Assembly: GCA_020137815.1 (NCBI GenBank)
Contig: CM035352.1
Coordinates: 6,944,001-7,008,000 of the forward strand
Reading direction: 5' to 3'
Length of the DNA: 64,000 bases
Source: Hormiphora californensis
Taxonomy: Eukaryota; Animalia; Ctenophora
A program made the position numbers and the translations under genes. Below are positions 3,001-61,371 of the stretch, piece by piece. Position 1 is the first letter of the stretch; each line of letters opens with the position of its first letter. The notes below the pieces were generated by a model. It saw only the letters and a program-made list of their open reading frames with translations. It ran no database searches and had not been told where the DNA came from.

Positions 3001-6000
3001 AAACGGCTCAACCAAAAACAGTGTTGTAGAGAATTGTCAGGCGAACATTTGGGTACAAGATTGATGTTCCAAGTCTTACCAACCGTCAGATATATCGTCT
3101 TAAAGTCAAAAATACGTGTTCATGAAATCCGACCGGGGTTCACGTTTTGAAAAATTCACAAATGCAAAGTTGCTCGGATCACATTGCATCCCTCATAAGA
3201 GTTGTAGGAAATTGTCTGGCGGTCATTTTGGTACCCGAGTTTTTGTCCTAGCTTAATGTTTAGAGTGTCTTATGACTGTCAGAACTGGAATTTTCACAAA
3301 AGTGGTCTCAGGTATCGCATTACATTTTGCCCTGTTATGAAGCTCATTGCTGCTTGAATAACATCTTAGTGCATGATAGTGTTGAGATAGACCACTTGCG
3401 TATCCTACACATTAACAGGGGCCTTGCCAAATCGTCATAACAACCCTGTCAAGTGTCTAGATGAAATTGAGACGATATGTGCTGATTATCATGGGATTAC
3501 ACACGACACCGAGCCACCTAATTAGGCGTTGTGAGCCGATACCAACTAAGACTCAGCGTAGACAAATCCTTATGTTCCTACAGTCATAACGCAACTAAAA
3601 CGTAGAGCTATGGATAAAATCATGGTATCAAAATGAACCTTAGACGATTCCAATGAAGCCCTTATAAATTTCAAACCATTTTACCCATTTGTTGATGACA
3701 CGTGATCCCCTCAAAAATGTTGGTTGAATTTCGTCTTTAGACAGTCATAAGACAGTCTAAACATTAAGCTAGGACAAAAACCCGGGTACCAAAGTGACCG
3801 CCAGACAGTTTCCTACAACTCTTATGAGGGATGCAATGTGATCCGAGCAACTTTGCATATGTGAATTTTTCAAAACGTGAACCCCGGTCGGATTTCATGA
3901 ACACGTATTTTTGACTTTAAGACGATATATCTGACGGTTGGTAAAACTTGGAACATCAATCTTGTACCCAAATGTTCGCCTGACAATTCTCTACAACACT
4001 GTTTTTGGTTGAGCCGTTTTGACCAATTTTTCGATGAGTTATGAGCATTTGAATGGAACCCACTCATCACCCAAAATCACAGGTCACGCAAAGACAGTGG
4101 GACACCCTGTACTACAACATGAGCCATTGTTACCATGGTTACCATTGTTACCATGGTTACCAAGATATCCATACACAACAACCCTCCCCCTGGTGCAGGT
4201 CTACACAGCGTTGAAACCGTAATGAAGTCTGCCTACGCTAGAAGCACCTTCTTCACATCCCACTCTAACCGTCTCGCGGGGAAGATGTACGGTGTGTCGT
4301 GTGGTGTGGAGGACCTGGCTCCTGGGGTACATGTGGCCTGCTACAACAGCCCCTCTCATGTGACTGTTAGTCTCCCCGCTGGGATTGGGACTGGAAAGGA
4401 GATCCTCTCTAGAAATGGTACAATTTGTATAATAGATGGAGTTGTAATGCTGTTGCCATGGAAATTAGACACAACCTTGACAACAGAAAAAACTCTCTAA
4501 CTTCATCTCCAACAATCAGGTTCAGTTCGGATTCGTGAAGTTGCATCTGGTGGATTTGCCTTCCATCACCCTATATTCACCACCCTAACATCCGACATCA
4601 CCACCCTTTTGTCGAGTTGTGTTACCCCGGTAACGCGTCCTGACAACTGGATATCCACATCATATCCACCGGAGAGCCAGCCCGTTACCATGGGAGCTGA
4701 ATTCTTCTCAGATAACCTGGTGAACCCTGTATACTTTGAGCAGAATGTCCGGGAGAGTCTGCCTAGTGATGCCATTGTTATCGGTAGGTGGTCGAGCTGC
4801 TAAATGCAACTGTAGAAACCCGGTATAATGTTGTGATTAAATTGTGAACAAATCGACCTGCCACCTGTTCACTCCATTATTGTGAGCTCACTAGGTGTCC
4901 ATGTCACCAACCCTCTCCCCAATTCACCATGGTCATTACTCAAACTGGGGGGGCCGGCTGAAGTTTTTGAAGTTTGAAGTTTTCCACCCTACTTTTTGAG
5001 TTTTTGAAGTTTTTGAAGTTGACTTCAAAAACTTCAAAAACTTCAAAAACTCTAAACTACTTTTATATGCCATCAGTGACTATTATTACACTTGTTTAGG
5101 TTAGTTTCATGCTTAATACATATTGTGGCAAAGTTATCCGTCCTTGTCTGCCCTTTTTCTACCACAAATTAGGATAATTACAATGATTCCTAGCCATGAA
5201 ATCCATGGCACAATAGGCGTAAAAAATTTAAATTTTTTGTAAAAACAGATTTTATTTTCATTCTATAGCTCAAAAAAATGCCTAGAAAATGCTAAGAAAG
5301 TGTTTAAAAATTATGAAGTAAATTTTCAAAAATTTTTTGGGGCCACACCCTTTTTGCCAGTTTCGCAAAATGCAAATTTTTCATGAAGGGAGTAGTGAAA
5401 AAAATATGGACACCAAAATCATCAGCGGCCTCGAGTTAGTGGGGGTACGTGCCAAAATGAAGTCTCCACCTCATCTAATTAGAGGGATAATGGGATATTT
5501 TCATAATTTTGTGTGTGCACATGACTTTTTTTGGGCTAGACCAGTTTTAATGGTTTATGAGTGACTATAGGCTTTTTAAAGAGGTGCACCTTGTCCGGAA
5601 TATGCAAGTTTATATAAGAGTTATGAAGCAACATAGGGCCTATCTCCAACGGTTTAGGAGATATGAGTTTTTGAAGTTTTTGAAGTTTTTGAAGTTTTCC
5701 ACCCTAAGTTTCTCTTTGAAGTTTTTGAAGTTGACTTCAAAAACTTCAAAAACTTCAGCCGGCCCCCCCCTCAAACTCCCATTACCCAATTCAGAGATCT
5801 CAGGAAACTCGTCCCTTCTGGGTCTACTACCCTCCTCCAACACCAAAATAGGACTTGTCCGTTACAAGAAAAACTCTCGAGATTCCTTCCTAGCTGGTAT
5901 GTGAAGTTATAAACACCTTGGTCAATGGAGGTATCATCTCATGACTCATAATAAACACCTTTCCCTCAATAAATATCAACTCTGCTCATTTCATTCCTGA

Positions 6001-9000
6001 TTCTGCTCATTGTATTCCTAATTCCTGTCCTCATACTTCATGTTTATTCAGGGGTTGGTGAGTTGTTTCTGCAGGGGGTTGTGGAGGACCCGTACGTTCT
6101 ACTACCTGCCCCTTCTTACCCCGTACCCCGGTCTACCCCACATATCTCATCTGCCATAGCGAGCGGTTGGAACCACTCAAAACGGTAATTAAGTTAACTA
6201 TTTAATTAAGTAACTTGTAAACTAATAGTTTAGTTTGTACCGACCCTTCTTACACTTTGAGTGGGTGATGAAGAAGGGTCGGGTAGGTACTGCAAAAGTG
6301 GTGTGCGGACTTTAGTGCTAACGGACTCTTTATCTAAACCCAAGGCGGACTCTATGTCTATTAGATAAAGAGTCCACTGTAGACTTAGAGTGTAGCACTA
6401 GAGTCCGCACATCTGCAGTAGTACTACTCAATGATTTATTTTTGTCCCGCGCCGCCCATCCTGCCTGTGGGTTGCCATCGTGTAAAAAGATGCAATAAAG
6501 TGCTACTCAATTTCACTTTTAAACTCTATATTAATTAATCCCTGGATAATATCGTACTGACATTTCAGATGGTGGGTTCCAGTTTTGGACGAGTTCTTGG
6601 TTAATGCTAATGATGCAAAACTAAATAAATTTGTCTCCTCCTTCCCAATAACTACACCTCTAATCGGTGAGTATTTAGTTAGTGGCAATATAATCGCTAT
6701 GACAACCATAACAACCACTTGAGAAGGTTATATCAGAAGTTGGAAGCCACTTTAGAATCGGAAACTAAATGTGTAGAGAGAACTCCCCTGGGATATTTCA
6801 TTACTGGGGGTTTTCTTGGCCAATCGTGAGAGATTATAAATAATTCAATCTGAGTTCTAAAAAATATTATCATTTCAGCGAGTTTCCTGGCGGGATACAG
6901 TGTAGGGGGACAGTGCACCCTGCCCCTTTCCCTGGGCGTGTACCTTACCTGGCAGAGCTATGCTCGTGTTAACGATCTCTCCCTGAGCAGTGTCTGTGTG
7001 CAGTTAACACACGTTAACATTCATAACACGGTGAGTGGCAGTAATCACACGTTAACATTCATAACACGGTGAGTGGCAGTTAACACATGTTAACATTCAT
7101 AATACGCTGAGTGGTATATTGCAGTTGTTACATGGTAACCATGGTAACCCTGTTAACTTCTGCAGGTGTACAGAGATACGTTGGAGGATTCGGCAAAGAT
7201 AAACGTTGCTATCCTCCCTAAATCAGGGGCATTTCAAGTCAGTGTGGGAGATATCCTCTTTATCTCAGGGACCATCAATATACACGATCCTCTGGTGAGA
7301 AATGAACATTTCGCCCCATGTTGTGATCCTTGCTCCTATTTCTTCACCCTCTGTTTCTTCACCCTCGATGTACATAATTGTACCCCTCCCATTTATGGGT
7401 ATTTGTATACAATACCCTCGCCCTCCACTCACTATATCAATTGCAGAGTGAATGTATGCTCGGCTCATGCTCGGAATCATCCCTCCTGGAACCAGGAGCA
7501 ATGCTTGAATTCCTGGAATTGTTGTCGCCTAGCAACGGAGATCTTGTAAAGTGTGACCTGGAGACATTCTCTTGTCTGGCTTTACCTAATGATAACTTAC
7601 TCTATAGTCTGGATGCTCACTTTCAGTCACTCCAGGTATATCTTGTTTAGCTCACACTCTGAGGGCTCGGCATATCAAGGTATTTCTTGTCTTGTTTGAC
7701 CCCTATGAACAGAACAAGGTACTGTAATTACAGTCGTACCCTGATTTACCGGAAAAAGTAAAAACCCATGTCCTTCAAGCATCCTGGTAAATCGGACCGG
7801 ATATCATAACCGTAGCAATTGAGATTATAGCCGTAAAACACCCAATTATATCCAATGTTAATTGCAATGTCATGTTACAGCTGGAAGCCATGTCCCACTT
7901 CCCATTCTGTGGTTTGACGTCAGTTGACTCTGTCACGGTTGATGGTCGGGGATTCCCTGAAGTCTCCTGGATTTGCCATCCCTACCCGGGTTCCTGTCTC
8001 TCTGATGCTGTCCACGTGGAGGGAGCTACATTCACCGTTCGAACAGGTACATGGCACACAATATTATAGGTATCCATGGAAACATGGGGGGTTACTATGG
8101 AAACATGGAGGGGTTACCATGGAAACATGGGGAGGGGGTTACTATGGAAACATGGGCAGGGGGTTACTATGGAAACATGGGGAGGGGGTTACTATGGAAA
8201 CATGGGCAGGGGGTTACTATGGAAACATGGATGCGTTACTATGGAAACATGGGGAGGGGGTTACTATGGAAATATGGGGGGGGGGGGGTACTATGGAAAC
8301 ATGAGGATGGGGTTACTATGGAAACATGGGCAGGGGGTTACTATGGAAACATGGGGAGGGGGTTACTATGGAAATATGGGGGGGGGGGGTTACTATGGAA
8401 ACATGAGGATGGGGTTACTATGGAAACATGGGGCGTTACTACGGAAACATGGGGAGGGGGTTAAGGGTACGCTAACCAAATTTTTTTTTCGAGTGCAGGG
8501 AAATCTCTCACCGTAGGGTTGTAGGCCATACCAAGGAGACCTCAAATATGCAATTTTAGCTCTTAAGTCGAATTCATATTTTTGCTACAGCTGTATAAAA
8601 AATGTCCTGTAAATACGTTTTTGGCATCTCAAAAAATTTTCTTTAAAGATAGAAGCATGAAAATTTGGGGATTTGAAGAGGACATGAAGGGGAATAACCA
8701 CAAAAATTGTTTTTGCAATCCGAGCTGATTTCCGGTCCTGAGATGGATTTCTTTTTTTCCACTTTAACGCCCTATTTGGCAAAGTTCCGAAAACATGTGA
8801 AAGCTGTAAATTGGTGAAAAGTTGCGTCTAACGATTCTCTATATGGCCATAAATTTTGGGCGTGTCCTTATTTGAGATAAGCTGTACAGAGTTTTTTTTG
8901 TGAAAGCCGTCATTTCAGAAATAAATAAATTGCCTGTATCTCAAAAACGGCTGATCGTAGAGACCTGAGACTATGCTTAAACGATTCAGGAGGTCCGATT

Positions 9001-12000
9001 TTGGGGGGGTCTTCTGAGAGACATTTTGCTCCTACTTCAACCGTTTTTGCTGTAATTGCGAAAAACAAATTCTATGGAAAGGGCAAAAGCTAAACTCCAA
9101 TATCCTGTAATTAGGTAATTTTGGCTAAGAAAGGACCGAAACTATGGAAAAATGTGTAACAAGCTAATTCCTTCACTATTTGGTCCATATGGGTCCCTAT
9201 AATCACAAAAAACAAAATCACAAAAAATCCACGATGGCGAAGATGGGTTTTTGTTTTTCGCAATTACAGCAAAAACGGTTGAAGTAGGAGCAAAATGTCT
9301 CTCAGAAGACCCCCCCAAAATCGGACCTCCTGAATCGTTTAAGCATAGTCTCAGGTCTCCACGATCAGCCGTTTTTGAGATACAGGCAATTTATTTATTT
9401 CTGAAATGACGGCTTTCACAAAAAAAACTCTGTACAGCTTATCTCAAATAAGGACACGCCCAAAATTTATGGCCATATAGAGAATCGTTAGACGCAACTT
9501 TTCACCAATTTACAGCTTTCACATGTTTTCGGAACTTTGCCAAATAGGGCGTTAAAGTGGAAAAAAAGAAATCCATCTCAGGACCGGAAATCAGCTCGGA
9601 TTGCAAAAACAATTTTTGTGGTTATTCCCCTTCATGTCCTCTTCAAATCCCCAAATTTTCATGCTTCTATCTTTAAAGAAAAGTTTTTGAGATGCCAAAA
9701 ACGTATTTTCAGTTCATTTTTCAAGCAGCTGTAGCAAAAATATGAATTCGACTTGAGAGCTCAAAGTGCATATTTGAGGTCTCCTTGGCATGGCCTACAA
9801 CCCTACGGTGAGAGATTTCCCTGCACTCGAAAAAAAATTTTGGTTAGCGTACCCTTAAGTAACACCCTCCTTGTTTCTATAGTAACCCCCCCCCCTATGA
9901 TTCCATAGTACTATGGAATCATAGGGGGGGGGGTACTATAGAAACATGGATGCGTTACTATGGAAACATGGGCAGGGGGTTACTATGGAAACATGGGGAG
10001 GGGGTTACTATGGAAACATGGGGGGGGGGGGGGTTACTATGGAAACATGGATGCGTTACTATGGAAACATGGGGGGGGGGGTTACTATAGAAACAAGGAG
10101 GCACGGTCTTGTATATTATCAATATAATATGTGTTGCACTGTTATGTTTTACTTCTTCATTGTTTGTTTTGTTCCGGGGCGCGGGGAAGGAGGGTCGAAC
10201 AAGGCAATTCATTGTCACATCTTAACCAAACATTGGCTCGAGAGAGATGTTATATCGCTCTGTAGTTGTTATTCATGTTGCTGCACAGTTGGCAAAGTTA
10301 CTCAACGACCAAATACACCCTCCCACGTGACTTGCACCACGTGCAAAACATGCGTTATAACAATATTATCATCTATGCACAGGTCAACATACAGCTTCCT
10401 AAACGCTCGAGCTAGTTTTCCATCCTCACTCACTCGAATATCCGCGGATCATGATCCTGATACCTCCCCCCTCCGCCATCAACGACACCTTACTTGAAGA
10501 CGATGATGACATAACAGAGAGACAGATAAAATCCGTTCTAAAGATTCTCCTCCCAGTCCTAGCTGGGCTCTCCATCCCCCCATCACTTGTCAATATTATC
10601 CTGCTACTAAACTTTGGTATCTTCACAGCCCCTTCCAATATCCTGTACCTGAATCTCATCCTACTAGATCTCATCAACAGTTACCTCGCCCTGACACTAA
10701 CCCTCAACAATCTTGATGTTGATAAAGTTTGGAGCAGATTTAACGCCACCCTGTATCTCTTCTCCTTTGATGCCTACATAGTTCTCCTACTGGGTCTCAC
10801 TGTCCTCCGTGTCCTCTGTGTCAAGATGTCTGCCTTGTCTGTCCTTCACAACCTCCACCTCGTATCCAGGGGAACGGTTGTCATGGCAGCAGTGTGGGGA
10901 GTCTTCATGGTGGTATACCCTCGCTTGGTACCTGTGGATGACGACACAAAGCAACCTGATGTAATCTGGTTCCTGTGGTGTGACATCGGAGAGATTCTTA
11001 TGGTGCTTGCTGCTGTCATTCTAGCACTGTACACCTGGGCACGTGTTAGGTACGTGTACACCTCATGTCACACATACAAAGCAGCCACATACACGTGCAT
11101 GCTCCTTGTCCTGAACTACATGATCAGTTACAGTTGGTATTTTGTATTAAACATGGGGCGATTCTACTACACGATTATTGATAAAGATGTACCTGATAGT
11201 GGGCTGTTCGTGTTGTTGTTTTTCAAGAAGAATAACTCAGTTATCATTGGAATTGCGTTCATGGCCGCCCAGACTCTTTGTCTGAATCTCATCCTGCTGT
11301 GGCAAGACAAGGCGAGGGGCACGTTGAGGAAGTATGGTCTGATGTGCTGGAGTGATGTGAAGAGGAAGGTACAGAACTTCGGTCAGGATTCAATGCTCTA
11401 CACTCGTCTTGAGTGAAACGAGACACTGCATGGGATCTAGATCAGACAGCGAGAAACCATGGGATTGGAAGTAACTCTGTCTGTGACACTGATACTGGGA
11501 TTGAGAAAGAGACTGCATTTCGAGTTCGTGTGTGTTAATGTTGTTATGGGGAATAGTTTGATTTTTTCATAAAAACTCTGCAAGTTTTTGTTGTTATTAG
11601 AACAGTCGGCCCTCGATTCACCGGGGAGGGAAAGGTGTCAATATGAGCCCACAACACCTTCCCCCCCAACCATCCCCATATGGGTTGGTAAGTTTCGTGT
11701 CCGGTAAATTGACAGTATACTGGAATTGGGGTCCTACCCCATTCTAGACTCCTTGAGACCCGATGTAACCCATGATATCTTTGTTGAGTCAACAATGATA
11801 TCTCTCCCCGATACCCATATCGCCCCCATCTCTGCCCTAACCCATGATATCTCTCCCCCAGACGTTCCACCCAGCCTGGTATACAGTGGTATTGTAGGAG
11901 GTGGCCCACTGTGGGTTACCAGCGCGGAACCTGTCTTCCAGGGCCAGCTACACGTGATGTGGTCACGTGACCGGCCCGTGGCGGTCCTCACAGAGGAGGA

Positions 12001-15000
12001 GTTGGTGACAGGGGACTATCAACCTACCAAACACTCACTGGACATTGGAACTAGGTAAAATGTTACATTTCTGGGTGACAAGTCCCTTATAGATCCTGCT
12101 CTGTTTGGGCTCCCAGACTGATATGTGATGGTTCAAAGGTTCAAATTTTACCCCACATAATAGTAACTCAATAGTCAATATCTCCTTGTAGGATCGTGAG
12201 TTCTGAAGATGTCATCCTGGAACTTGTTAGTGTGTGTATTCACCGTCTGGTGGCCCAGTGGGGTAAAGGTCAGGTCGTTATTCTAGCAGGGCCCACGGAG
12301 TCACCAACCCTCTCTAACTTCCTATCTCAAAGGTATTACACGGGAATCTTCTCATCGGGACATCACATACATTCGATCTCTTCGAAGCTTTCGAGAACAT
12401 ATGATATTTGTATTTGGTGATGACATCCCCTCTTATGGGGCTGCAAGTGTAAGGGTGCCCGCGTCACCGATACTTCTATTTGAATTCCTATATACAATTT
12501 CAGAGGGTTAGCAGTTCGGACTGTGGACCTCTCTGATGATCCCCACCCCACCATGTACCCGGGGGAGTGTGCTGTTGTTCCCAATAGAAACGGGTACCTT
12601 GCCGAAACGCTGGCTAATGTGACCAGGTATGTGCTGTGAATGCGGTTGCTCGACCGAGCCACACACCACAGAGTGCAGTCTGTGTGAGATACATCAGGAA
12701 CCAGCTTCAAATAATTGAGAATGGGTGCTTACTTGTATCATGTACCCAAATTTTTTCTTATCAGGTGTGGTAAAGTCATCAATTTGGTCCTAAATAAAGA
12801 AGCAGAGAAAGACCAAGGAATGAATTACCTGCTAAAAAATATTACAAGTAAGTAGCTCAGAATTTGATTATTAAAAACGAGTCAGCGCCGCCAGACAATT
12901 GCTTCTAGGTTCCTTTTGGCGGATTTTGCAGTCAGTATGAAAAACTTAATAAAACAATTAAAACTAATATTAATTTCAGTTGTCAACTTCAATCTGGCCG
13001 ATATAAAGTGTCCTAGTAACTGGTCCGCCATCCGCAAATCCCTCTCCCCCGAGTCTGAAGAGCCTGCTGCTGGGGACGACGCCCCAGATCAGGGTAAGTT
13101 GAATGTTGATATTATAGAGCACGCCCAGGCCTCTGATCCCTCACAGCGGTCAGCACGGGCCGTTGCCTACGGGCGCGCGAACAATGAACATGGGGGGCGC
13201 GACGTGCCCAACACGGGCCGCGGCGGTCAATCTGTGAGCGCCACTCAGTTCTGGGGAACAGTAGAACCTATCAGTATCATTCAGGTCAACAACGTTTCAA
13301 ACTTTTCAACACTACTTTAAACAAATTAATTTGAGGCGGCACCCCCCCTCAAATCATTTGCAGCTATGTCCGATGATGCAGGAATAGTGGAGAAAGTGTT
13401 AGCAGACCTGAGGACAGCGGTCGGAGTCAAGGGTTCGAAAGTTGTCGAGGTGTACGAGTTTGAGGATACCCATCAGCAGAACGTCAAACGGATTGAAGCG
13501 AAGACTCTGCCTGAACTGAAACCGGTATGTAAGGTTCTGGGAGTACCGCTAGTTGGACGGGACGGGAGCACTCGAACTAAGCCGGTGTTGGCAGACAAAA
13601 TCGTACTCCAGTTAGAGGGTTTGTTTCCCATTGAATGCCAGGACTGCGGGGACAAATACAGGATCGAAATTGGGAAAAAACCCATAATGAGGTGCTTTTT
13701 GTGTGGGCAAGGGGCTCATGCATGTAAATTCTCAGCAGAGGGAACCAGGAAGGGGTCTGTATGGATTTGTATCTGCTGCTGGAAGAAAAATGAGGAGAAC
13801 ACCGACAGGGAAGATACCAAGGAGGAGAAAGAAGAACCCTTAACAGTAAAACAGGATGAAACTGTCGAGGGGGAGGAAACAGAAGAGAAAGAGGAGGAGG
13901 AGGAAGGTGAAGGTGAAGAGAAGAAGGACGATGAGAAGAACACTACCGTTGCTGGAGACAAGACTATGGAAATTAGCCCAGGAAATGTATGTAATTACTA
14001 CCTGAACAAAGTGTGTCGACATGGCAGGAATGGAGACCAACTGGTGAATGGAAAAGCTTGCCCAAAACTTCACCCGGTTTTGTGCAAGAAATTCTGCCAT
14101 TACGGAGGCTCCAAGCGGTATGGCTGCATCAAGGGAAGTTTATGCAAATTTTATCATCCAGTTCTCTGCAAGGGTTCTGATGCTAGAAGGCAGTGCTACG
14201 ACAACCAGTGCAAAATGACTCATTTGTTGCACACCAGGAGAGTGAGGGAGGACACCCAGGACTCTTGGAGAACAGAGGAGAGGAACCGGAAATCCTTTAC
14301 TCATGCGGTTGAGGCGGCAGACACTGCGTTTAGACCCAAGCGACAGAGGAACATGACAGGACCAGAGAAGCGAGGGGAACCAGTCACCAAGGAATTTCTC
14401 CTAGAAACGCTGGGGAAAATCAAGACTGAACCTCCTCGTAAAGAGATACAGAAGGAGAAGAGGAACGAGCCCATTACAAAGGATTTTTTATTAAATATCC
14501 TGGAGGACATGAAAGCAGAAATAAAGCAATCAGTGGTCCTACAGTTGATGGAGTTCAAGACTCAAGTGGTGGATCCAGTGGCGGGGAGCAAAGTACCTGT
14601 TTGGGGGTCAGCAGGAGTGCACCCAATGTTTCACAGTTTCACCTCTTAAACGCCAGAAGTTTTTGTCCATCAGAGGAGTCCACCTGGAAACTTGAGGTGG
14701 TACGTGATATGGTGGATGCAGAGACCACCCCTGTAGCGTTTCTAGGAATAACGGAAACCTGGTGGAGAGGGTATATGGCGGAGGCCCAGCTGCAGATTTC
14801 CGGATATAACCTGGTGAGATGTGACAGGAAGGGTAGGATTGGAGGAGGATGCGCCCTCTACATCCATTCTAGCCTCGCTATATCGGACCAAGTGGAGTAT
14901 TCCGACAACAGTAATAACCTAGTGGCGGCCTACATGGGCGCAACCCACTCAATAGCGGCAGTTGTGTATCGTGCAGGGTCGGACTCAACAGATTTTCAGG

Positions 15001-18000
15001 AACTGGTGAATAAACTGCAGACATTTGTAGAATTGCATAGCCAGGATAAAACCGTACCGGATATTTGGGTGATGGGTGACTTCAATCTCCCACTCCTCAA
15101 ATGGAAAGGAGGGGTACGGGAAACAGTTGACCTACCTCTGTATAATGTTCTAGGTCATTTTGTAGACAATAACTCACTAAGTCAAATGGTTAATTTTCCT
15201 ACCAGAGGGGAGAACGTCTTGGATTTGGTACTAACCAACCGTCCCGATTATGTCCTTTCAACCAAGTGTGAAGACCTGGGGATTTCTGATCACGACATGG
15301 TTACATGCACCTTGACATACAATAGTACGGAGAAGCCCCCCAGGGAAAATAGGGATAGGTCGGAATTTGCGGAGCTGAATCTTCTGAAGGCAGACTTCGA
15401 CAGGCTAAACACTGTTTTCGACGAAGTGGACTGGGATCAGCTACATCGTTTGTGTACAGAATCGGAAGACGCTGATGCTGAATTCTTAGAGTTAGTAAGG
15501 CTCACTGTTCTTCAGGTATGCAAGATCTTCACTGTGCCGAAGCGATGGAAGGAGAAACGGAAGGACAAAATCCTCCGGCACCTCCGCAGTCGGAGAAGAA
15601 AGTTGAATAGGAGAATGGTACATGCAAGAGGCAAGGCGAAGCTCAAATTTGAGGAGCTAGTCGGCAGAGTCACGCTTGCTATTAAAGGGCATGTGAAGGA
15701 AAAACAGCAGAGTGAGGAAGAACGAGTCGCTTCTGCAGTTAAAGATAAATCCTAAGTTTTTCTACAGTCATGCAAAGTCGCTGTCTAAGGTCAAATCAAC
15801 AGTGGCACCCCTAGCGAGAAAGGATGGATCGCTTACTACTGACCCAAAGGAAAAAGCTGAGATCTTACAGAGTCAGTATGTGAAAGTTTTCAGCGATCCT
15901 TCAGAGGTAGATCCTGAAAAGGCAGTGGAGCACATCACAGAAGAGGAAGCTGAGATAAGCGACATCAGCTTTACGAAGGAGGACATAGAGCGGGCACTAA
16001 AGGAACTCAAACCGAACTCAGCGGCCCCTCCTGGTGATATCCCGGCCATCGTTCTGAAGAATTGCCGCCAAACGTTATCCTATCCAATATGGGTTATATG
16101 GCAGTCTTCGTTTCAGTCTAGTACAATACCTGCCGTTATGAAGGAACAGTTCATTTGCCCCATCTTCAAGAAAGGTGACCGATCAATACCTGGAAACTAT
16201 AGACCAGTTTCCCTAACGTCTCACCTTTCCAAAACCTTTGAGAGAATTGTCAGGGATCACCTAACGGAGTTCCTGGAGAGGGCAGAGCTGCACTGTAATG
16301 GTCAACATGGGTTCAGGAAAGGGAGAAGTACTATGACCCATCTTCTCGCCCATATCGACAGAGTTCTCAAACATCTGACGGACAACAACGAAGTCGATGT
16401 GCTTTACCTAGATTTCCAAAAAGCATTCGACCGAGTTGATATTGGGGTCTTACTGAGAAAATTACAAAGATATGGCGTGAGAGGAAAGCTACTTGCTTGG
16501 ATAAAGGAATTCCTCACCAATAGGAAGCAAGCAGTACTAGTGGATGGAGAGCAGTCTCGGTGGGAATGGGTCATCAGCAGTGTGATCCAGGGAAGCGTGC
16601 TGGGACCTATCCTGTTCTTGTTCTACGTAATTGACTTGAAAGAGTCGTTGTCAAGCGCTGACGCCCTGTCCTTTGCTGACGATACGAAACTTATACAGGT
16701 AATACGGACCCTACTAGACCAGGCTGAACTTCAGAAGGACCTAGGAAGTGTCACTCAGTGGTCAGTCAACAACAACATGAAGCTCCACGAGGATAAGTTT
16801 CAATTGGTTAATTATTCGCTTGGTAGATCAAAGTTGTTGAGAGAACTACCCTTCACTGCAGAAACGTTATCCTATGTTACAATGGGAGGAACCGTGGTGG
16901 ATCCAGAGCAGCATGTAAAAGACCTGGGGGTCTGGCTATCTTCGGATGGTACCTGGACTCATCATATTGGCGATATCGTAAGGAGAGCTAACATGATTTC
17001 AGGATGGATCTTCTGTGCATTCAGGAGTAGGTCACCAGAAGTACTACTAACCTTGTACAAGGCGTTAGTCCGGCCCATACTAGAATACTGTTGCCTGGTG
17101 TGGTATCCAACGAAAATCGGGGATGATCAAATGGTGGAAAACGTTCAACGGGCGTTCACTCGGAAGATCCAAGGGATGAAGAATCTGGACTACTGGCAGC
17201 GGCTAGAGGCGCTTGACCTTATTTCCCTCCAGAGAAGACGCCAGAGATATGAGTTAATCCACGTTTGGAAGATCTATCAGGGACTTGTTCCCAATTGTGT
17301 TGAGATGGAGTTCCAGACGGGTCGGTTGGGAGTACAGGCGAAAACCCAGAAATATCCTTACTGGGCAGAATCCAAACGGGCAAACCAACTGTATAACTCT
17401 TTCGGCTTCAGGGCACCTCGGTTATGGAATAAACTCCCTCGAGAGGTTACTCTTTCAGAAACACTTCCTGGGTTCAAGGCAAACCTTGGTGCGTTCATGA
17501 AGGAATTCCATGACAGACCACCGGTGCGTGGCTATATGACGGTCCCTAATGAGTTTCGAGAGGCAGAAAGGAAGAGCGTTGTGTGAAGCTGTATATGTTG
17601 TTTGCTGCTGACGCTGTTTGTGTTTTACTTTGAGTTAGAGACTGTAAATAGACAATTTGACAAAGGAGGACCCACGAGATTGGAATTTCTGCACTTTATG
17701 TTTGTATTGTGTGTAATTTATTTGAACTTGAACTTGAACGTTCTCTCCATCTCTCCATCTCCAGCGCGCGCCACAAAAATTCTAAATGTCACTTGAAAAT
17801 TCACTGAAATTTCAATTTTGGATGAATAGTGGGGGGGGGGGGGGGGGGGGCGGCCAACATCGGCCTGAATATAAATAGTGTAGACACTTAACAACGTCAA
17901 CAACAATAATCATGCCCTCCTTTCTTCAGATACGTGGTCACTTGCAGCATACACCAAAGACCCCTTTGTTCGACGAGCTATAGAAGACTTCTTCCGTTAC

Positions 18001-18198
18001 AAAACAAGCTACTCCTTAACAACAGGGAGCTCATTTGAAGACCAGGAGGGAGATAGTGTGATCCTCAGCTCGGGGTCTCGTGAAATGGTCGATGTTAAGA
18101 TTGCACCCAACAATATATCCGCCCTCTTGGCGTGGATGGAGAGCACTTTCAAGGGACTGAAACCACCCATTTCAACTAGAATATTGTTTGAAACGTGA
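31..18198 (+). CDS. FASN: Animal type I fatty acid synthase-like / PKS gene, 5'-partial, multi-exon (KS-MAT-degenerate DH-divergent C-terminus)
   Basis: GT/AG exons in a continuous frame: ~31-124, 276-452, 569-765, 883-987, 1138-1284, 1457-1639, 1762-1963, 2165-2298, 2422-2580, 2753-2903, 4199-4417, 4520-4783, 5795-5896, 6052-6184, 6569-6667, 6879-7030, 7166-7294, 7447-7635, 7881-8046, then less certain 11748-12054, 12192-12268, 12504-12626, 12765-12847, 12980-13093, 17930-18198 (TGA). KS motifs [37 protein letters not shown]; MAT motifs GLGSQW, GHSLG, AFHH. Orthology to FASN itself is not established. Confidence 0.85.
2911..4109. mobile_element. Non-autonomous Tc1/mariner-like element (long-TIR MITE) in FAS intron
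   Basis: CAGGGTGTCCCACTG...CAGTGGGACACCCTG termini, ~370-bp TIRs (mirror ORFs 2950+ and 4070-), TA duplication on both sides. Confidence 0.9.
4947..5769. mobile_element. Foldback/MULE- or Merlin-like MITE with G7/C7 termini
   Basis: GGGGGGGCCGGCTGAAG...CTTCAGCCGGCCCCCCC, subterminal (TTTTTGAAG)n/(CTTCAAAAA)n arrays, 8-bp TSD CTCAAACT (4939-4946, 5770-5777). Superfamily assignment is an inference. Confidence 0.8.
7001..7114 (+). repeat. ~38-bp tandem repeat x3 duplicating an FAS exon end and its GTGAGT donor
   Basis: cagttaacacacgttaacattcataacacggtgagtgg repeated three times with few changes. Confidence 0.85.
8075..10095 (+). repeat. ~20-25-bp minisatellite (GGGTTACTATGGAAACATGG), interrupted by a DNA transposon at 8465-9854
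   Basis: Repeat units visible at 8075-8460 and ~9860-10095, including a short inverted stretch at ~9870-9945. Confidence 0.9.
8465..9854. mobile_element. Long-TIR non-autonomous DNA transposon with TTAA TSD (Kolobok-like GG..CC ends)
   Basis: TTAA|GGGTACGCTAACC...GGTTAGCGTACCC|TTAA; ~600-bp near-perfect TIRs with ~180-bp spacer (mirror ORFs 8782- and 9537+). Confidence 0.88.
10451..11416 (+). CDS. Single-exon divergent rhodopsin-like 7TM GPCR nested in an FAS intron
   Basis: 321-aa ORF with seven hydrophobic segments, N-terminal NDT sequon, TM2 [12 protein letters not shown] (cf. N..l.nLa.aDl), TM3 end LTVLRVLCV (DRY-equivalent Arg), TM4 Trp, basic helix-8-like tail. Confidence 0.8.
   Translation: MILIPPPSAINDTLLEDDDDITERQIKSVLKILLPVLAGLSIPPSLVNIILLLNFGIFTAPSNILYLNLILLDLINSYLALTLTLNNLDVDKVWSRFNATLYLFSFDAYIVLLLGLTVLRVLCVKMSALSVLHNLHLVSRGTVVMAAVWGVFMVVYPRLVPVDDDTKQPDVIWFLWCDIGEILMVLAAVILALYTWARVRYVYTSCHTYKAATYTCMLLVLNYMISYSWYFVLNMGRFYYTIIDKDVPDSGLFVLLFFKKNNSVIIGIAFMAAQTLCLNLILLWQDKARGTLRKYGLMCWSDVKRKVQNFGQDSMLYTRLE
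13299..13335 (+). other. Spliced-leader (SL) exon sequence at the 5' end of the CR1-like LINE
   Basis: AAACTTTTCAACACTACTTTAAACAAATTAATTTGAG, identical to 55547-55583; matches my recollection of the ctenophore SL exon; not followed by a GT donor, so not an SL RNA gene. Confidence 0.8.
13366..14649 (+). CDS. LINE ORF1 with PHD-like and CCCH-type zinc fingers
   Basis: 427 aa; CQDC..CFLC..HAC..WICICC cluster, acidic linker, repeated C-x-C-x-C-x3-H motifs (e.g. CKKFCHYG...[11 protein letters not shown]), helical C-terminus. Confidence 0.8.
   Translation: MSDDAGIVEKVLADLRTAVGVKGSKVVEVYEFEDTHQQNVKRIEAKTLPELKPVCKVLGVPLVGRDGSTRTKPVLADKIVLQLEGLFPIECQDCGDKYRIEIGKKPIMRCFLCGQGAHACKFSAEGTRKGSVWICICCWKKNEENTDREDTKEEKEEPLTVKQDETVEGEETEEKEEEEEGEGEEKKDDEKNTTVAGDKTMEISPGNVCNYYLNKVCRHGRNGDQLVNGKACPKLHPVLCKKFCHYGGSKRYGCIKGSLCKFYHPVLCKGSDARRQCYDNQCKMTHLLHTRRVREDTQDSWRTEERNRKSFTHAVEAADTAFRPKRQRNMTGPEKRGEPVTKEFLLETLGKIKTEPPRKEIQKEKRNEPITKDFLLNILEDMKAEIKQSVVLQLMEFKTQVVDPVAGSKVPVWGSAGVHPMFHSFTS
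14601..17586 (+). pseudogene. CR1 ORF2 (APE endonuclease + reverse transcriptase) with one frameshift near 15740
   Basis: APE motifs LNARS, ITETW, MGDFN, SDH; RT motifs [38 protein letters not shown]. Removing one A in GTTAAAGATAAATCCT restores the frame as VKINPKFFY. Confidence 0.88.
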
Positions 18199-55123: not shown

Positions 55124-55546
55124 ATCTAAGCTATCCGAGAAGTGAGGGATAAGGACGAAGCACGGGAGACTGGAGAGCAGTGAGAAAAAGGGCGGCTGGA
55201 AATGTGTAAAAAAGTGCTGCCTGTGTGAATCAGAACGCATTAACTGATGAAGTGGCGGCCGCGCGGCATTTTGGACAAAATGGTGGAATCAGCGATCAAA
55301 ATATTATTCGCGCTGCATTTTGAGCCGCGCATCTAAATTTACATTTAGATTTTTCTTAAAATTTTTCCTAAATTTTTCTTAAACTCGCCAGTCGGGGTTT
55401 TTTTAGCAACAGTTCGGCCCGGGCGCGATTATAATCTGGGTGCCTTGCAGCCTGTTTACAGGTGCGCGCTACCAAAAGAGTATACTTAGACCGACTTTTT
55501 TCAAACGGCTATAGCCATGGAACCACATGGCCGATTTGAGTAAACT

Positions 55547-55583
55547 AAACTTTTCAACACTACTTTAAACAAATTAATTTGAG
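55547..55583 (+). other. Spliced-leader (SL) exon sequence at the 5' end of the L2-like LINE
   Basis: AAACTTTTCAACACTACTTTAAACAAATTAATTTGAG, identical to 13299-13335, ending 13 nt before the ORF1 ATG at 55597. Confidence 0.8.
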
Positions 55584-55596
55584 ATCTCCTCGCAGG

Positions 55597-56784
55597 ATGA
55601 CAGGACCGCCCGACGAGGGCAGGCCGGAAGCTATGACGGAGCAAGATGGACCCCTACAACAACTTGAATCGGAGCTAGCAGAACAAAACATCCTCCAGCT
55701 TCTGAAGGACGATTCTGACGTCCCTAGAAACAAACCCAATCGTGAGACCCTATGGACGCTCCTGAAGAAAGCGTACAATGCTGTATGCTCCTTGACTGAT
55801 GCACATGCTCAGACAACAAATGGAATGAATGACGAGAACCTCGGCAAGCGGTTTGAGGCGTTGCAGAATAATGTTCTCGCTGCTGTGACTGCGGAGATAT
55901 CGAAATTGAAGAACTTTCATCCGAAAGCTGCTCAAGACACTCCAACCGCTCGTATCAACATGAATTCAACTATGCCACCTGTCAACTATGCTGAACAACT
56001 CAAGAAACCAGTCACCAAGGCTCATTTATCCCTATCCGGCGATTCAGGTCAACTTTCTGCTGCTAACAAACTTTTAAAATCTGTGCCAACCACGTTTCTG
56101 AGGAACAAAGATGACGGATCTGTTCTCATCGGATTTGACTCGGAGGAGGCTATGACGAAAGCCAAGGACAGTATTGCTGTATCAAGTCCCGACGTGACAT
56201 TGGAAGAAAAGGTGAAAACGAAGAAGCTGACGATCAAAAACGCCGATGTTTCATCCTTCCCCATCGAGAGCACTGAGAAAATGAACAAAGAGATGATTCA
56301 GAGAAATGATGCCAATATTATAGAGATGCTATGCGAGAAAAATAATGATGTGAAAAAGATGATTGATGATGGCGAAAGAATTGAGATAGTGCACTTTAAG
56401 CGACATTTTCGTGATAAAGACCTAGCTACAATTGCAATTCGTGTTACTTATAGGCTATTTAACTACATGCATACTAAGGGGTTTGTGTTCATGGGAAACT
56501 CCTTCTCAAGAGTAGAGGAGAGATTCCATGTCCGCCAATGTTTTACTTGCCAAAAATTCGGTCACATCGCCTCTGAGTGTACGGCGAAAACCCCAACCTG
56601 CTACCGCTGTGCCGGCCCCCACATTGGTCGAGACTGCGATAGTAAGGATGGGAATAACCAATGCTGTGCCAATTGCTCACAGTCCAGTGACCCTCATTTC
56701 CAATCATGTGCATCCACACACAACGCTGCTTCCAAAGACTGCCCGAGCTACCTGAAACGAATCCAGAACCCAAAAAACTTCTAA
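55597..56784 (+). CDS. LINE ORF1, gag-like with three zinc knuckles
   Basis: CFTCQKFGHIASEC, CYRCAGPHIGRDC, CANC...HNAASKDC; N-terminal coiled-coil-like region. Confidence 0.85.
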   Translation: MTGPPDEGRPEAMTEQDGPLQQLESELAEQNILQLLKDDSDVPRNKPNRETLWTLLKKAYNAVCSLTDAHAQTTNGMNDENLGKRFEALQNNVLAAVTAEISKLKNFHPKAAQDTPTARINMNSTMPPVNYAEQLKKPVTKAHLSLSGDSGQLSAANKLLKSVPTTFLRNKDDGSVLIGFDSEEAMTKAKDSIAVSSPDVTLEEKVKTKKLTIKNADVSSFPIESTEKMNKEMIQRNDANIIEMLCEKNNDVKKMIDDGERIEIVHFKRHFRDKDLATIAIRVTYRLFNYMHTKGFVFMGNSFSRVEERFHVRQCFTCQKFGHIASECTAKTPTCYRCAGPHIGRDCDSKDGNNQCCANCSQSSDPHFQSCASTHNAASKDCPSYLKRIQNPKNF

Positions 56785-59700
56785 GTTCCCCTTTGCAGAG
56801 GCTAAAGATTGGACTGCTGAACTGTTTCTCGTTAAGAAACAAAACGGTCGATATTCTCGAACTTATGATTGATCGTGGACTGGATGTTCTTGCAGTTACG
56901 GAAACGTGGCTGCAGAGTGGAGAGAAAGCTCTGTGTGCTGATATTAAAGATGCTGGGTTTGATATCCAGCACCTTCCAAGGAATGGCCGCGGTGGGGGAG
57001 TTGGAGTCATCACACTTCGGAGTGTTAAGATTGGCAAGGCTAAGTCTCGTGTTGTTGCTACATCATTTGAACACCAGGAGGTACTTCTTAAAGCATTTTC
57101 ACCTACAAGGATTGTTGTTATCTATAGGCCAGGAAACAGCTCGAGTTTCTCTCTATTCCTTGAGGAGTTCGAGCAGATCCTTTCATGTGCAAACGAGAAC
57201 CATGAAGCCACAATAATCTGTGGAGACTTCAATATCCCCATCCAGGATGCTCAACATCCACAAACAAGGAAGTTCCAAAAACTTCTTAGTGAGTTTGGCT
57301 GGAGAAACATTGTGAATGAGAAAACACATGTCAAAGGCGGGACTCTAGACCTAGTCCTTGTCCAGACCGCACACGAGACAACGTTGGACTTGTCTAATGT
57401 TTCAGTGTCACCCGTTCCAGATGTTCCTGACCACTTTTTAGTCACTCTTGAAGCCACAATAACTATGCCACCGCCGGAGCCAAAAGTAATCAAGTCCAGA
57501 AAGCTAAAAGACATTCAAAGAGAAGACCTTGCTGAGGCTATTTTGGGGACTGACCTCTGTGGAGATCTGCCTGAAGAACTGGAGGACTGCGTGAGACTAT
57601 ACAATAAGACTCTGCGTGATATCCTAGATGAGTTAGCTCCAATCGAGAAAATGATTATGAAGCACAGGAAGCGCAACAGATGGTGGACACCAAAATGCCA
57701 ACAACTAAAAAGAAAGAGACGTGCAGCAGAAAGACGGTGGCTAAAAGCTCGCCTGAACTCAAATGATCGTGGAAGACTAACAAAAATGTTTACTGCATGG
57801 AAAAACGCCAGTAGAGAAGCAGCAACTCTAATCTGTAATTCTCGTTCTCAATACTACTTCTCACGCCTGGACAAACTGACTACAGATGGAAAAGCCACAT
57901 TTGCTATAGTAAATAAATTGCTTGATATCGAGAAAACACCTACAGAGCTGCCATCTCAACACTCTCCTGATGCTTTAGTAACCAAGTTCAACGAGTTCTT
58001 CAGAAATAAAGTGGCTAAGATCTACAATGATATTGAGAAGCTTCCATATGTCACAACTCAACCGTCTTCTGGCCCTCCTACTCCTGCTCTCCCTGGACCT
58101 CCCGTTCCTGCTCTCCCTGGCCCTCCTGTTCCTGCTCTCCCTGATTCTCCTGTTCCCGCTCTCCCTAGCCCTCCTGCTTTCGCTGGCCCTTCTGTTCCTG
58201 CTCTCCCTGGCCCTCCTACTCCTGCTCTCCCTGTTCCTGGCCCTTCTGTTTCTGCTCTCCCTGGCCCTCCTACTCCTGCTCTCCCTATTCCTGGCCCTCC
58301 TGTTCCCGCTCTCCCCAGCCCTCCTGCTCCTGCTCTCCCTGTTCCTGGCCCTTCTGTTCCTGCTCTTCCTGGCCCTCCTACTCCTGCTCTCCCTGTTCCT
58401 GGCCCTCCTGTTCCTGCTCTCCCCAGCCCTCCTGCTCCTGCTCTCCCTAGCCCTCCTGCTCCTGCTCTTCCTGGACCTCCTGTTCCTGTTATCCCTAGCC
58501 CTCCTGCTCCTGATATCCCTAGCCGTGCTACATCACCTCCCAAACTAATATGCTTTCAGCCAGTCACTGATGAAGATTTGCTCAAAATTATCCGTGGAAT
58601 GCAGAAAAAGTCTTGTTCTCTTGACCCGATGCCATCCACAATGGTATCTTCTGTTCTTATTGAGCTTCTTCCGGCTATCTCCAAAATCATCAACGACAGT
58701 CTAAAGACAGGAATTTTCCCTACCAAGTTCAAAGAAGCAGTCATCAGGCCGGCATACAAAGGAAAAGGTCTTGACCCTGAAGATCTTGGCAGCTACCGCC
58801 CAATCAGTAATCTACCATTTGTGTCAAAGATCATTGAGAAATGTGTATCTTTACAGTTGACCGAGCATTTAGAGAGCCATCAGTTGCTATCGGGAGTTCA
58901 ATCTGCTTACCGCAAACACCATAGTTGTGAGACTGCAACACTAAAAGTTGTTAACGATCTTCTGCTACTGCTTGATAAGAAGTCAAAGGCTGTGCTACTA
59001 CTGCTGGACCTATCTGCAGCATTTGACACAGTTCAACACAGCAAACTACTAAAGAAGATGCGGACGGACTACGGAATAGAAGATACTGCTCTCGCCTGGT
59101 TCAAATCATATCTCACAGGTCGGTCCACCTCGGTACAAATTGGAGATGCACGATCAAGATCGATAGAGGTGGATATTGGTGTGCCGCAGGGTAGCATCCT
59201 AGGGCCTATTCTCTTCATTATGTATACCAAAGAGCTCCAGTCGATTGCGGAAAAGCATGGTCTTAACATTCACCTCTTCGCTGACGACACCCAGATCTAT
59301 ACTAGTTTTAGGCCGGAAACCTTTGACTTTGTTGTGGATAAATTACAAAATTGTATCAGTGACATCAAGCAATGGATGAAGCAAAACTACCTCAAGCTAA
59401 ATGCCAGTAAAACGGAAATTCTGATACTCAACCACAAAGCCGACCGCACTCCTGGGCCAACTGGATTAGTGATTGAAAAAGACGAAAGTCCAATCGTACA
59501 ATCTACGGAAATCGAATCAACGACAAGTGCCCGTAATCTCGGTATTTGGCTCGATCCCACCCTCTCAATGGCAAGCCATATCTCGAAAATTGTCCAAGCA
59601 TGTAATATGCAACTTCTGAATCTGTGGAGGATAGCTAGAAAACTTCCCAGGCAACTGAAAATCAAGCTAGTGCATTCGTTAATACACTCTCGCCTAGACT

Positions 59701-60149
59701 ATGGAAATGCCCTACTCTATGGTGCCACAGAATCTGATTTAAACCGCCTCCAAAAGGTCCAAAACAGTGCTGTACGGTTCGTCTATGGAACAAGAAAGAG
59801 GAGAGGAGTGACCCAGATGCGGAAAGACCTACACTTCCTTCCGATCAAAAGCAGAATCATCTTCAAAATCTGCTTACTAACATACAAATCCATCAATGGA
59901 ATGGCTCCCCCCTACATCTCCAACCTGATCCCCCTCCGGAAGCCAAAGGTCAAGGTAGTCAGGGCAGACGAGGATAGCACACTCCTCCACAAACCATACA
60001 CACACAAGTACACATCCACTAGTAGAGCCTTTAGTATTAGTGCACCTAAACTGTGGAATGAGTTGCCGAAACCCCTGCGAGAAAGTGAATCTGTCGATGT
60101 GTTTAAACAGCAACTTAAAACTTACCTCTTTAAGAAAGCTTATTGCTAA
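56706..60149 (+). CDS. L2 ORF2: APE endonuclease + reverse transcriptase with Pro-rich insert
   Basis: 1147 aa; AVTETWL, CGDFN, PDH; YRPISNLPF, QSAYRKHHSCETA, LLDLSAAFDTV, GVPQGSILGP, FADDTQ; L2-type C-terminus RAFSISAPKLWNELP..FKQQLKTYLF. Confidence 0.93.
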   Translation: MCIHTQRCFQRLPELPETNPEPKKLLSSPLQRLKIGLLNCFSLRNKTVDILELMIDRGLDVLAVTETWLQSGEKALCADIKDAGFDIQHLPRNGRGGGVGVITLRSVKIGKAKSRVVATSFEHQEVLLKAFSPTRIVVIYRPGNSSSFSLFLEEFEQILSCANENHEATIICGDFNIPIQDAQHPQTRKFQKLLSEFGWRNIVNEKTHVKGGTLDLVLVQTAHETTLDLSNVSVSPVPDVPDHFLVTLEATITMPPPEPKVIKSRKLKDIQREDLAEAILGTDLCGDLPEELEDCVRLYNKTLRDILDELAPIEKMIMKHRKRNRWWTPKCQQLKRKRRAAERRWLKARLNSNDRGRLTKMFTAWKNASREAATLICNSRSQYYFSRLDKLTTDGKATFAIVNKLLDIEKTPTELPSQHSPDALVTKFNEFFRNKVAKIYNDIEKLPYVTTQPSSGPPTPALPGPPVPALPGPPVPALPDSPVPALPSPPAFAGPSVPALPGPPTPALPVPGPSVSALPGPPTPALPIPGPPVPALPSPPAPALPVPGPSVPALPGPPTPALPVPGPPVPALPSPPAPALPSPPAPALPGPPVPVIPSPPAPDIPSRATSPPKLICFQPVTDEDLLKIIRGMQKKSCSLDPMPSTMVSSVLIELLPAISKIINDSLKTGIFPTKFKEAVIRPAYKGKGLDPEDLGSYRPISNLPFVSKIIEKCVSLQLTEHLESHQLLSGVQSAYRKHHSCETATLKVVNDLLLLLDKKSKAVLLLLDLSAAFDTVQHSKLLKKMRTDYGIEDTALAWFKSYLTGRSTSVQIGDARSRSIEVDIGVPQGSILGPILFIMYTKELQSIAEKHGLNIHLFADDTQIYTSFRPETFDFVVDKLQNCISDIKQWMKQNYLKLNASKTEILILNHKADRTPGPTGLVIEKDESPIVQSTEIESTTSARNLGIWLDPTLSMASHISKIVQACNMQLLNLWRIARKLPRQLKIKLVHSLIHSRLDYGNALLYGATESDLNRLQKVQNSAVRFVYGTRKRRGVTQMRKDLHFLPIKSRIIFKICLLTYKSINGMAPPYISNLIPLRKPKVKVVRADEDSTLLHKPYTHKYTSTSRAFSISAPKLWNELPKPLRESESVDVFKQQLKTYLFKKAYC
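58069..58525 (+). repeat. Degenerate 24/30-bp pyrimidine-rich tandem repeat encoding (GPPVPALP)-like units inside ORF2
   Basis: Repeated GGCCCTCCTGTTCCTGCTCTCCCT; frame is preserved. Confidence 0.9.
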
Positions 60150-61371
60150 GTGTCTCTCATTATCGGTGATATTTTACACAGTGATCACTACCAGGGTCAG
60201 TGAACATCTGAATTTTAATTATTAACTGTTTTTTTACTACCACTAATATTTTTTATCACTCTTGTACACTGTTATCCATGTAAACTGTTCTCCCTGTAAA
60301 CTGTTTACTACTGTATGCTGTTTCTATGCATGACTCATGTATTGATTCTGTATACTGTTTCTGTAACAATGTGCACGTATTTTTTTATTATATATACAGA
60401 TTATATATTTTATATGATACATTAAATCGTACTTACCTCAGTTCTATACCAACACCCACATCTCCACTACCCATACATGTCCATCACTCACCAACACATT
60501 CACTTACTCACCTATACTTAATAATAGTCTATAACAATTAACTTATCTCTCTTAATATGAATAGTATTATATTATGTCTTTATTACTTATTCAATTAATA
60601 AATATGATTGCACTCTTTTTAATCGAATTCTATAAATCAAATTAATTTATTAACTTAATTTATAAATAATCATCATAGCATGCATATTCTCTTACTAATA
60701 CATAATATTTTGATGTTATCTTGACTGAGCGTTAAAAATATGTTATTGGCTCTCCTTTACCACTGGCCCTTTCTTGGACCGCTTTAGAAAGTGGTAAATG
60801 GTGTAGCATCGATCTGATTGAATCAGTAGCAAGCCATTTATTTTAAACACTATTAAGCGGTATATTAAATGTCATGAATTATTATTATTATTATTATTAT
60901 TAAACGGTATCAGTTAGAGAATCGATAGCCCTAACCGATAACCCCAAACCAAACCCTAACCAGACCCTAACGGATAGCCCTAACCCGTCGCGCGCGCCAA
61001 AACTACAAATTGTTAGCAATGAAAGGCACCCAGATTTTAACGTTTTCCGTTCGGCCCCCTCGGCTATCACCTTCTGCTCATATTCCAAAAGATTCCTGTC
61101 TAGTAGTGCGGACCTGATCTAAACGCACTGTCTGATCAAAACTGGGATAAAGTCCATTTTTATTCAACTGTTCACCCCTCAACTCGTGCGCGTGCGATAT
61201 TTTAATTTACGCTGCGCGCGCTACACGTTAACATGTGATAAACGCGCAAAACAATTCCGCGCACGACTTTGGGGGGTGAACAGTTGAAAAAAAATGGAGT
61301 ATAGACAGGTAGTAAAAGAGTTGCCAGTTAATCAAAAGGCTGAGTAAAAAGTCTCTACCAAAGACTTAAGT

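Follow-up and report, generated by a model that had tools for sequence, protein, structure and literature searches.

Non-LTR retrotransposons are already known beside spliced leader (SL) sequence: NeSL, CRE, SLACS and CZAR insert into SL RNA genes with a restriction-like endonuclease, and the ctenophore elements described here resemble them in being non-LTR elements found beside SL sequence, but differ in that they are of the APE type and carry the SL exon to unrelated sites. In flatworms, Calvelo et al. 2025 discarded 597 loci in which partial leaders adjoin LTR and LINE elements, with the suggestion that these are integrated trans-spliced retrotransposon RNA (PMC12582326), a process which is thereby already in print as a suggestion. 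The section concerned gives no junction anatomy, family analysis or life cycle, and the flatworm leaders are partial, whereas the ctenophore elements are full-length LINEs of several lineages headed by near-complete, exact SL exons. For Hydra, about 30% of transposon Iso-Seq reads are reported to carry an SL, which means that animal transposon RNA is trans-spliced, and the accessible text stays at the RNA level, with no description of genomic SL-headed LINE copies (PMC12220107). In dinoflagellates, trans-spliced RNA has been copied into the genome together with its leader, and it was suggested that an AG within the SL relic might act as a fresh acceptor and that the relic might work as a promoter (Song et al. 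2017; PMC5585692). As far as the accessible text goes, these are host retrogenes, often with partial, mutated or stacked relics, while in the ctenophore case the LINEs themselves are the passengers and carry one exact leader.

A defined 5' end can also be given to LINE RNA in other ways. L1Tc/ingi and other non-LTR elements carry 5' HDV-like ribozymes that release their RNA from co-transcripts (PMC4035085), and an internal promoter additionally gives L1Tc transcripts that are unspliced (PMC1874656), both according to the accessible text. Trans-splicing would likewise define the 5' end; the ribozyme acts by element-encoded self-cleavage, whereas trans-splicing is a host spliceosomal reaction which would also add a cap. 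Our literature search, with most subscription papers and Repbase outside its scope, returned no SL-headed LINEs in ctenophores and no SL-renewing LINE cycle. For ctenophores, the accessible text of Schultz et al. 2021 places the Hormiphora californensis leader on 56% of Iso-Seq reads and in 718 genomic copies, counts 491 genomic copies of the Mnemiopsis leidyi leader motif, and terms the dispersed copies spliced-leader loci without a link to LINE 5' ends (PMC8527503).

Here we analysed one stretch of 64,000 nucleotides from the H. californensis genome, referred to as the window, in which 151 LINE query proteins detect two LINEs, E1 and E2, both of them SL-headed (2/2); as a sample of LINEs the window is unbiased but small (n = 2). 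Their parts are as follows.

13094..17929, + strand: likely host intron around E1, GTAAGT..TTCAG, with the flanking exons in phase
13294-17739, + strand: E1, whole element, from SL head to (TTGAAC)3 tail
13291..13296, + strand: likely target-site duplication AACGTT, 5' copy, overlapping the SL start by its last 3 nt (microhomology)
13294..13335, + strand: SL exon copy of E1, exact over 42 of 43 nt, up to the splice-donor boundary
13336..13365, + strand: 5' UTR of E1, 30 nt, with a single acceptor-like AG (97.8th percentile) 2 nt before the ATG
13366..14649, + strand: E1 ORF1, 427 aa, cysteine-rich
14442..15755, + strand: first part of E1 ORF2, APE-type endonuclease, stop-to-stop frame
15697..17586, + strand: second part of E1 ORF2, reverse transcriptase
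17722..17739, + strand: 3' tail of E1, (TTGAAC)3
17737..17742, + strand: likely target-site duplication, 3' copy, overlapping the E1 tail by its first 3 nt
55547-60901, + strand: E2, whole element, from SL head to (ATT)8 tail
55541-55545 (again 55546-55550) and 60901-60905: likely target-site duplication TAAAC of E2
55547..55583, + strand: SL exon copy of E2, 37 of 43 nt, exact
55584..55618, + strand: UTR of E2 (13 nt), in which an acceptor-like AG stands 1 nt ahead of the ATG; a GCCC-N5-GGGC motif comes next
55597..56784, + strand: E2 ORF1, 395 aa, zinc knuckle
56691..60149, + strand: E2 ORF2, open, 1152 aa from stop to stop
60878..60901, + strand: 3' tail of E2, (ATT)8

The initial annotation had taken the sequence at the head of E1, a 42-nt stretch ending 30 nt 5' of the ORF1 start codon (ATG at 13366), for the ctenophore SL exon. 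This is borne out, as it equals the final 42 of the 44 letters printed for the H. californensis leader in the accessible text (PMC8527503), with an identity of 42/42 nt for E1 and 37/37 nt for E2. The further statement that the same 37-mer opens two unrelated LINEs holds as well: the copies are exact, and at the DNA level this 37-mer is the sole long similarity between E1 and E2 (blastn E 8e-14), whose reverse transcriptases are about 27% identical. A 36-nt SL pattern, with up to three mismatches allowed, matched the window twice (13300 and 55548), both times with 0 mismatches, and matched none of 100 shuffled controls, on which ground chance was rejected as the source of the two copies. At both ends of E1 lies AACGTT, as the initial annotation had noted, and in E1 as in E2 the SL sits between the target-site repeats, which makes it a part of the insertion and not its target. 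As likewise anticipated, neither copy is directly followed by a GT donor; the match runs only 0-1 nt into the SL intron and has no counterpart upstream, and an identity as SL RNA genes was rejected for both. An Rfam search of the window gave no match. The 5' junctions of both elements show 3-4 nt of microhomology, and the genomic SL of E2 lacks the first 6 nt. In addition, ATTTGAG, equal to the final 7 nt of the SL, occurs at 55534-55540, 6 nt upstream of the E2 SL, either by chance or as a relic.

Beyond the window, metagenome contigs were scanned with an exact 35-nt SL pattern, which yielded 17 matches in 16 loci; such a pattern selects perfect SLs, and mutated SLs and SL-less copies could not appear. 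The 16 loci comprise five mRNA-like contigs, one SL RNA/5S rRNA tandem gene (L012) and ten retroelement heads, seven of which belong to two-ORF LINEs and three to ORF1-only elements; set against the spliced-leader loci of Schultz et al. 2021, retroelement heads thus make up 10 of the 11 non-mRNA loci in this sample. The presence of the leader at mRNA 5' ends, on which its identity depended, is seen in the five mRNA-like loci, whose contigs open with the SL and continue, after 1-26 nt, with the ATG of host ORFs that are unrelated to each other. These encode a papain-type protease, a CCT chaperonin, PSMD13 and two unnamed proteins, Pfam giving names for three of the four scanned; judged from their anatomy, we infer that these contigs are RNA. 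The SL RNA gene in L012 consists of the exon, a GT donor and an intron that folds (z -3.9); it sets the exon length at 43 nt and alternates with the 5S rRNA gene in a 778-bp tandem unit:

263-381, 693-822, 1041-1159 and 1471-1600 of L012: SL RNA gene/5S rRNA gene repeats

A linkage of SL RNA and 5S rRNA genes is known from nematodes and other groups. No Rfam family covered the L012 SL RNA. Among viral contigs, a 20-nt SL pattern returned 14 loci, all of them chance matches inside one phage gene family, and the E1 reverse transcriptase as query found 0 relatives among nine candidate stretches; prokaryote genomes gave 0 SL matches, and none of 33 stretches encoded an ORF1 relative.

Together with E1 and E2, the ten outside heads confirm that the SL heads LINEs of several lineages. 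Six of the ten are related to E2 over ORF1 and ORF2 and one (L010) to E1, while three have an ORF1-like frame only:

462-1620 of L015: ORF1-only SL-headed element
54-1258 of L009: ORF1-only SL-headed element
L014: ORF1-only SL-headed element

In L015 and L009 a microsatellite tail closes the element after about 1.2 kb, a repeat cuts into L014, and all three are likely non-autonomous half-LINEs; they belong to a diverse family with 14 homologs (32-97% identity), most of them on contigs of 1.0-1.3 kb. The L015 protein was placed with ctenophore clusters in the Atlas (0.91-0.92), with PF25298 as a lead, and L014, in which the SL is joined 1 nt before the ATG, is weakly related to E2 ORF1 (E 3e-5). 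Unrelated upstream DNA of 38-461 nt precedes the SL in six of the ten outside elements; the other four have 1-17 nt upstream and, taken alone, could be RNA contigs. None of the three outcomes that the initial annotation had named as contradicting it turned up, two of them, an SL at the empty site and a shared upstream sequence, having been approached by indirect means. Across the 12 elements the SL matches measure 42, 37, 40, 41, 42, 43, 42, 42, 35, 41, 38 and 41 nt, so that the full 43 nt are kept in one copy and 1-8 nt are lost in 11. In all 12 the match runs 0-2 nt into the SL intron, stopping at the splice donor, and the DNA found upstream of the SL gene exon in L012 is absent. No second SL relic was found by eye within 150 nt after the SL in any of the 12, the two window elements included. 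Moreover, five L2-like sister families, with an ORF1 identity of 44-63%, have a four-fold-site identity of 0.29-0.42 in 10/10 pairs and yet the same SL, and L002, L005 and L016 have a common SL-UTR junction, with UTRs 76-82% identical. As these families are saturated at silent sites and still have the same SL, and three of them the same junction, the junction has outlived many cycles. SL heads are general among the ctenophore retroelements visible here, and perfect SLs are common on ctenophore elements, universality being beyond the reach of a scan with an exact pattern.

With its two ORFs, APE and reverse transcriptase domains, microsatellite tail and short target repeat, E1 has the layout of a CR1-group LINE. 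Its reverse transcriptase has its nearest named relatives in M. leidyi (43-48%), followed by bird, Hydra and lancelet elements, and in a tree of 16 rows, hand-chosen from 120 listed matches and built without curated clade references, it falls together with Mnemiopsis elements (93/94), next to sequences from stork, Hydra and lancelet, and E2 lies far off. The bird LINEs, which we take to be CR1, support the CR1-like label of E1, and the L2 label of E2 draws on C-terminal and 3' end signatures that we assume to be those of L2; resting on reverse transcriptase neighbours and on such signatures, both labels are to be read as likenesses. E1 ORF1 gave no match in a Pfam scan, has a CCCH zinc finger solely as an Atlas lead (0.87), and is 28% identical to ORF1 of the SL-headed L010. 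A frame shift in ORF2 near 15750 makes it improbable that E1 serves as a master copy. The junction of E1, AAC|GTT, recurs in L010, to which E1 is distantly related, and may reflect a target preference arising from tail/leader microhomology.

The surroundings of the two elements differ. For E1, the initial annotation had described a sense copy in a host intron, and this fits: E1 is inserted in sense within a putative in-phase GT..AG intron (13094-17929) of a + strand gene, which without E1 would measure 390 bp. The upstream exons of this gene match ketoacyl-synthase and acyl-transferase domains; for the exon 3' of E1, none of 45 candidates was an informative homolog (one repetitive protein matched), and the intron accordingly rests on splice signals and phase. 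The whole may form a multi-exon gene of the fatty-acid or polyketide synthase type (window 276-18198, + strand), with an intronless hydrophobic ORF of 321 aa nested in sense at 10451-11416, without a Pfam match. For E2 the description does not carry over, as no sense intron is demonstrable around it; E2 and an intronless ORF of the opposite strand stand head-to-head, with E2 about 420 bp upstream of the ORF. This ORF encodes glucose-6-phosphate isomerase (GPI; window 53474-55123, - strand; PGI, E 1e-237) and has an AG 2 nt before its likely ATG. E2 ORF2 encodes, in this order, an APE endonuclease, a proline-rich tandem insert and a reverse transcriptase. Additionally, both elements lie within 125 nt of a GGCGCG site (13172, 13196, 17767, 55422 and 60993); the window has 13 such sites and 5.7% of other positions lie within 150 nt of one, a comparison that is post hoc with n = 2. 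For ctenophores, the accessible text of one study describes a loop-anchor motif that is GC-rich (PMC12221973). Finally, perfect inverted and direct duplications of 130-304 bp at 62072-63418 are possibly an assembly artefact or a foldback element.

The results thus place the SL exon within the insertion, with its end at the donor boundary and with an exact sequence in elements that are unrelated. Because it stops at the donor on full-length elements of several lineages, we are confident that the SL on these LINEs came by trans-splicing of LINE RNA, which would be processed like a host mRNA before reverse transcription proceeded nearly to its cap. How the leader persists is a separate matter. 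Our best model as a whole, to which we give an even chance, combines this origin with leader-headed copies as the propagating form, whose leader would be renewed by new trans-splicing at or next to the end of the old one. Transcripts running into a copy would originate in the host intron that holds it, at a host promoter close by or at one inside the element; the sense intron around E1, for example, would supply read-through RNA. The more specific step, in which the old SL serves such run-in transcripts as outron and ends in the AG that is taken as acceptor, with the full leader restored and no relic left, we put forward tentatively, at slightly below an even chance. Renewal is preferred as it would account for the loss of 1-8 nt in 11 of 12 copies alongside leaders of 40-43 nt, exact and single, in old lineages; with the SL kept in full in just one of 12 copies, the 5' end would be expected to erode without it.

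Several observations stand against renewal, namely the weak score of the GAG at the SL end, competing AGs in the UTRs and the position of E2 outside any demonstrated sense intron. GAG is the weakest acceptor; at the SL end it scores -1.3, below 18 of 19 hand-picked host acceptors, which end in CAG (16) or TAG (3), although this comparison is partly circular, the exon finder used having penalised GAG. An AG scoring better than the SL end is present in the UTR of 10 of the 12 elements; where the UTR is long this is expected by chance, while in L010, L015 and E2 it lies only 6-12 nt behind the SL and should compete. L010 and L015 have TTTCAG directly after the SL, and the UTRs of E1 and E2 each contain a single AG, which scores above the 97th percentile and precedes the ATG by 1-2 nt. 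If these downstream AGs were used, daughters would lose them, and L014 may, on weak grounds, be such a daughter; under simple renewal the retained downstream acceptors sit unexplained.

Among the alternatives to renewal, the one that survives best assumes SL-less masters with their own promoter and outron, of which the SL-headed daughters are dead ends and which are themselves renewed from rare unspliced RNA. This is the ordinary layout of a trans-spliced gene, and it would explain, without calling on a GAG acceptor, why the SL is exact, the 5' ends ragged and the junction conserved, and why relics are missing; furthermore, our outside sample could not contain SL-less copies. On the other hand, both window LINEs are SL-headed (2/2), and five of seven element contigs, from one assembly, end no more than 38 nt upstream of the SL, as would be expected of repeats collapsed at the boundary of their family. 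LINE proteins prefer the RNA that encoded them, which here would be the spliced one, and masters would therefore rarely be remade. Overall, we regard this explanation as unlikely, at roughly one chance in four.

Somewhat less probable, at about one chance in five, is a single capture of the SL per lineage followed by inheritance, in which an internal or SL-borne promoter drives unspliced RNA that is copied, and a downstream AG makes the translated mRNA. It is here that the UTRs carry weight. The initial annotation had given the elements almost no 5' UTR, which is true of E1 (30 nt) and fails for six L2-like relatives with 5' UTRs of 145-215 nt. These UTRs are conserved and partly structured, with strong folds in three of the six (z -2.6 to -3.5). 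A consensus fold, drawn from three UTRs only, has 7 of 65 pairs changed on both sides, which is too few sequences for proof. Long hairpins are predicted in the 145-215 nt UTRs of L002, L005, L016, L008 and L011, and in L002, L004, L005 and L016 the UTR closes with TGTTTTAGG ahead of the ATG. A GCCC-N4-5-GGGC motif follows the SL by 18-24 nt in four of the 12 elements, namely E2 (55608-55620) and the three ORF1-only elements L009, L014 and L015, with a shuffle frequency of 0-0.02 each and no occurrence in the five host mRNAs; it is followed by an AG, and in three elements a very short upstream ORF precedes it. This recurrent motif and the similar UTRs of L002, L005 and L016 could be internal promoter signals. 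The inherited leader would moreover agree with the retention of downstream acceptors, with L014, which resembles the product of splicing at a downstream AG, and with the position of E2 outside any demonstrated intron; an SL-borne promoter has been proposed for dinoflagellate retrogenes, according to the accessible text (PMC5585692). Against it count the need for at least three independent captures, the loss of 1-8 nt in 11 of 12 copies, which could not be restored, and the absence from all 12 of the DNA upstream of the SL gene. The 35-43 nt without substitution across saturated distances speak against it as well, a point weakened by ascertainment through an exact pattern.

Very improbable, by comparison, is a fusion of SL RNA or SL-capped mRNA to the LINE at insertion, by template switching or RNA ligation. 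Chimeras such as U6-L1 exist for other small RNAs, and the microhomology at the 5' junctions would fit; the match, however, stops at the donor in 12/12 elements without a piece of SL intron or host mRNA, the LINE part is full-length, and one junction is common to three diverged families, for which reasons this origin was rejected. Hardly worth entertaining is the insertion of LINEs into SL RNA genes or dispersed SL exons with the SL as target, for although SL-gene-specific elements of the NeSL/CRE type exist in nematodes and kinetoplastids, the SL here lies inside the target-site repeats, an APE domain precedes the reverse transcriptase in E1 and E2, and the 5' and 3' flanks of E1, E2 and L015 are unlike the SL gene L012, in line with the initial annotation, which had set the elements apart from that type.

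Returning to renewal of the leader by trans-splicing, such a cycle does not imply that a promoter is absent. That the elements do without a promoter of their own, as the initial annotation had proposed, is a separate step, which we consider doubtful. The broadest form of the proposal, in which at least three ctenophore LINE lineages would have given up their promoters, the leader would cut read-through host transcripts and most dispersed SL loci would be LINE heads, likewise appears to us improbable, at somewhat under one chance in three.

In conclusion, many of the 718 dispersed SL copies of H. californensis may be LINE heads, and LINE heads likely explain the dispersed ctenophore SL copies together with the mis-joined gene models that these cause, while full-length LINE insertions can be recognised by the SL as a tag. 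Renewal of the leader in each cycle, if it takes place, would add trans-splicing to internal promoters and 5' ribozymes as a third means by which LINEs keep their 5' ends; the elements would then be exploiting trans-splicing selfishly, with a bearing on the question why this process has persisted. Should the promoterless cycle be true, trans-splicing would solve the 5' end problem of these LINEs as ribozymes do for R2 and L1Tc.
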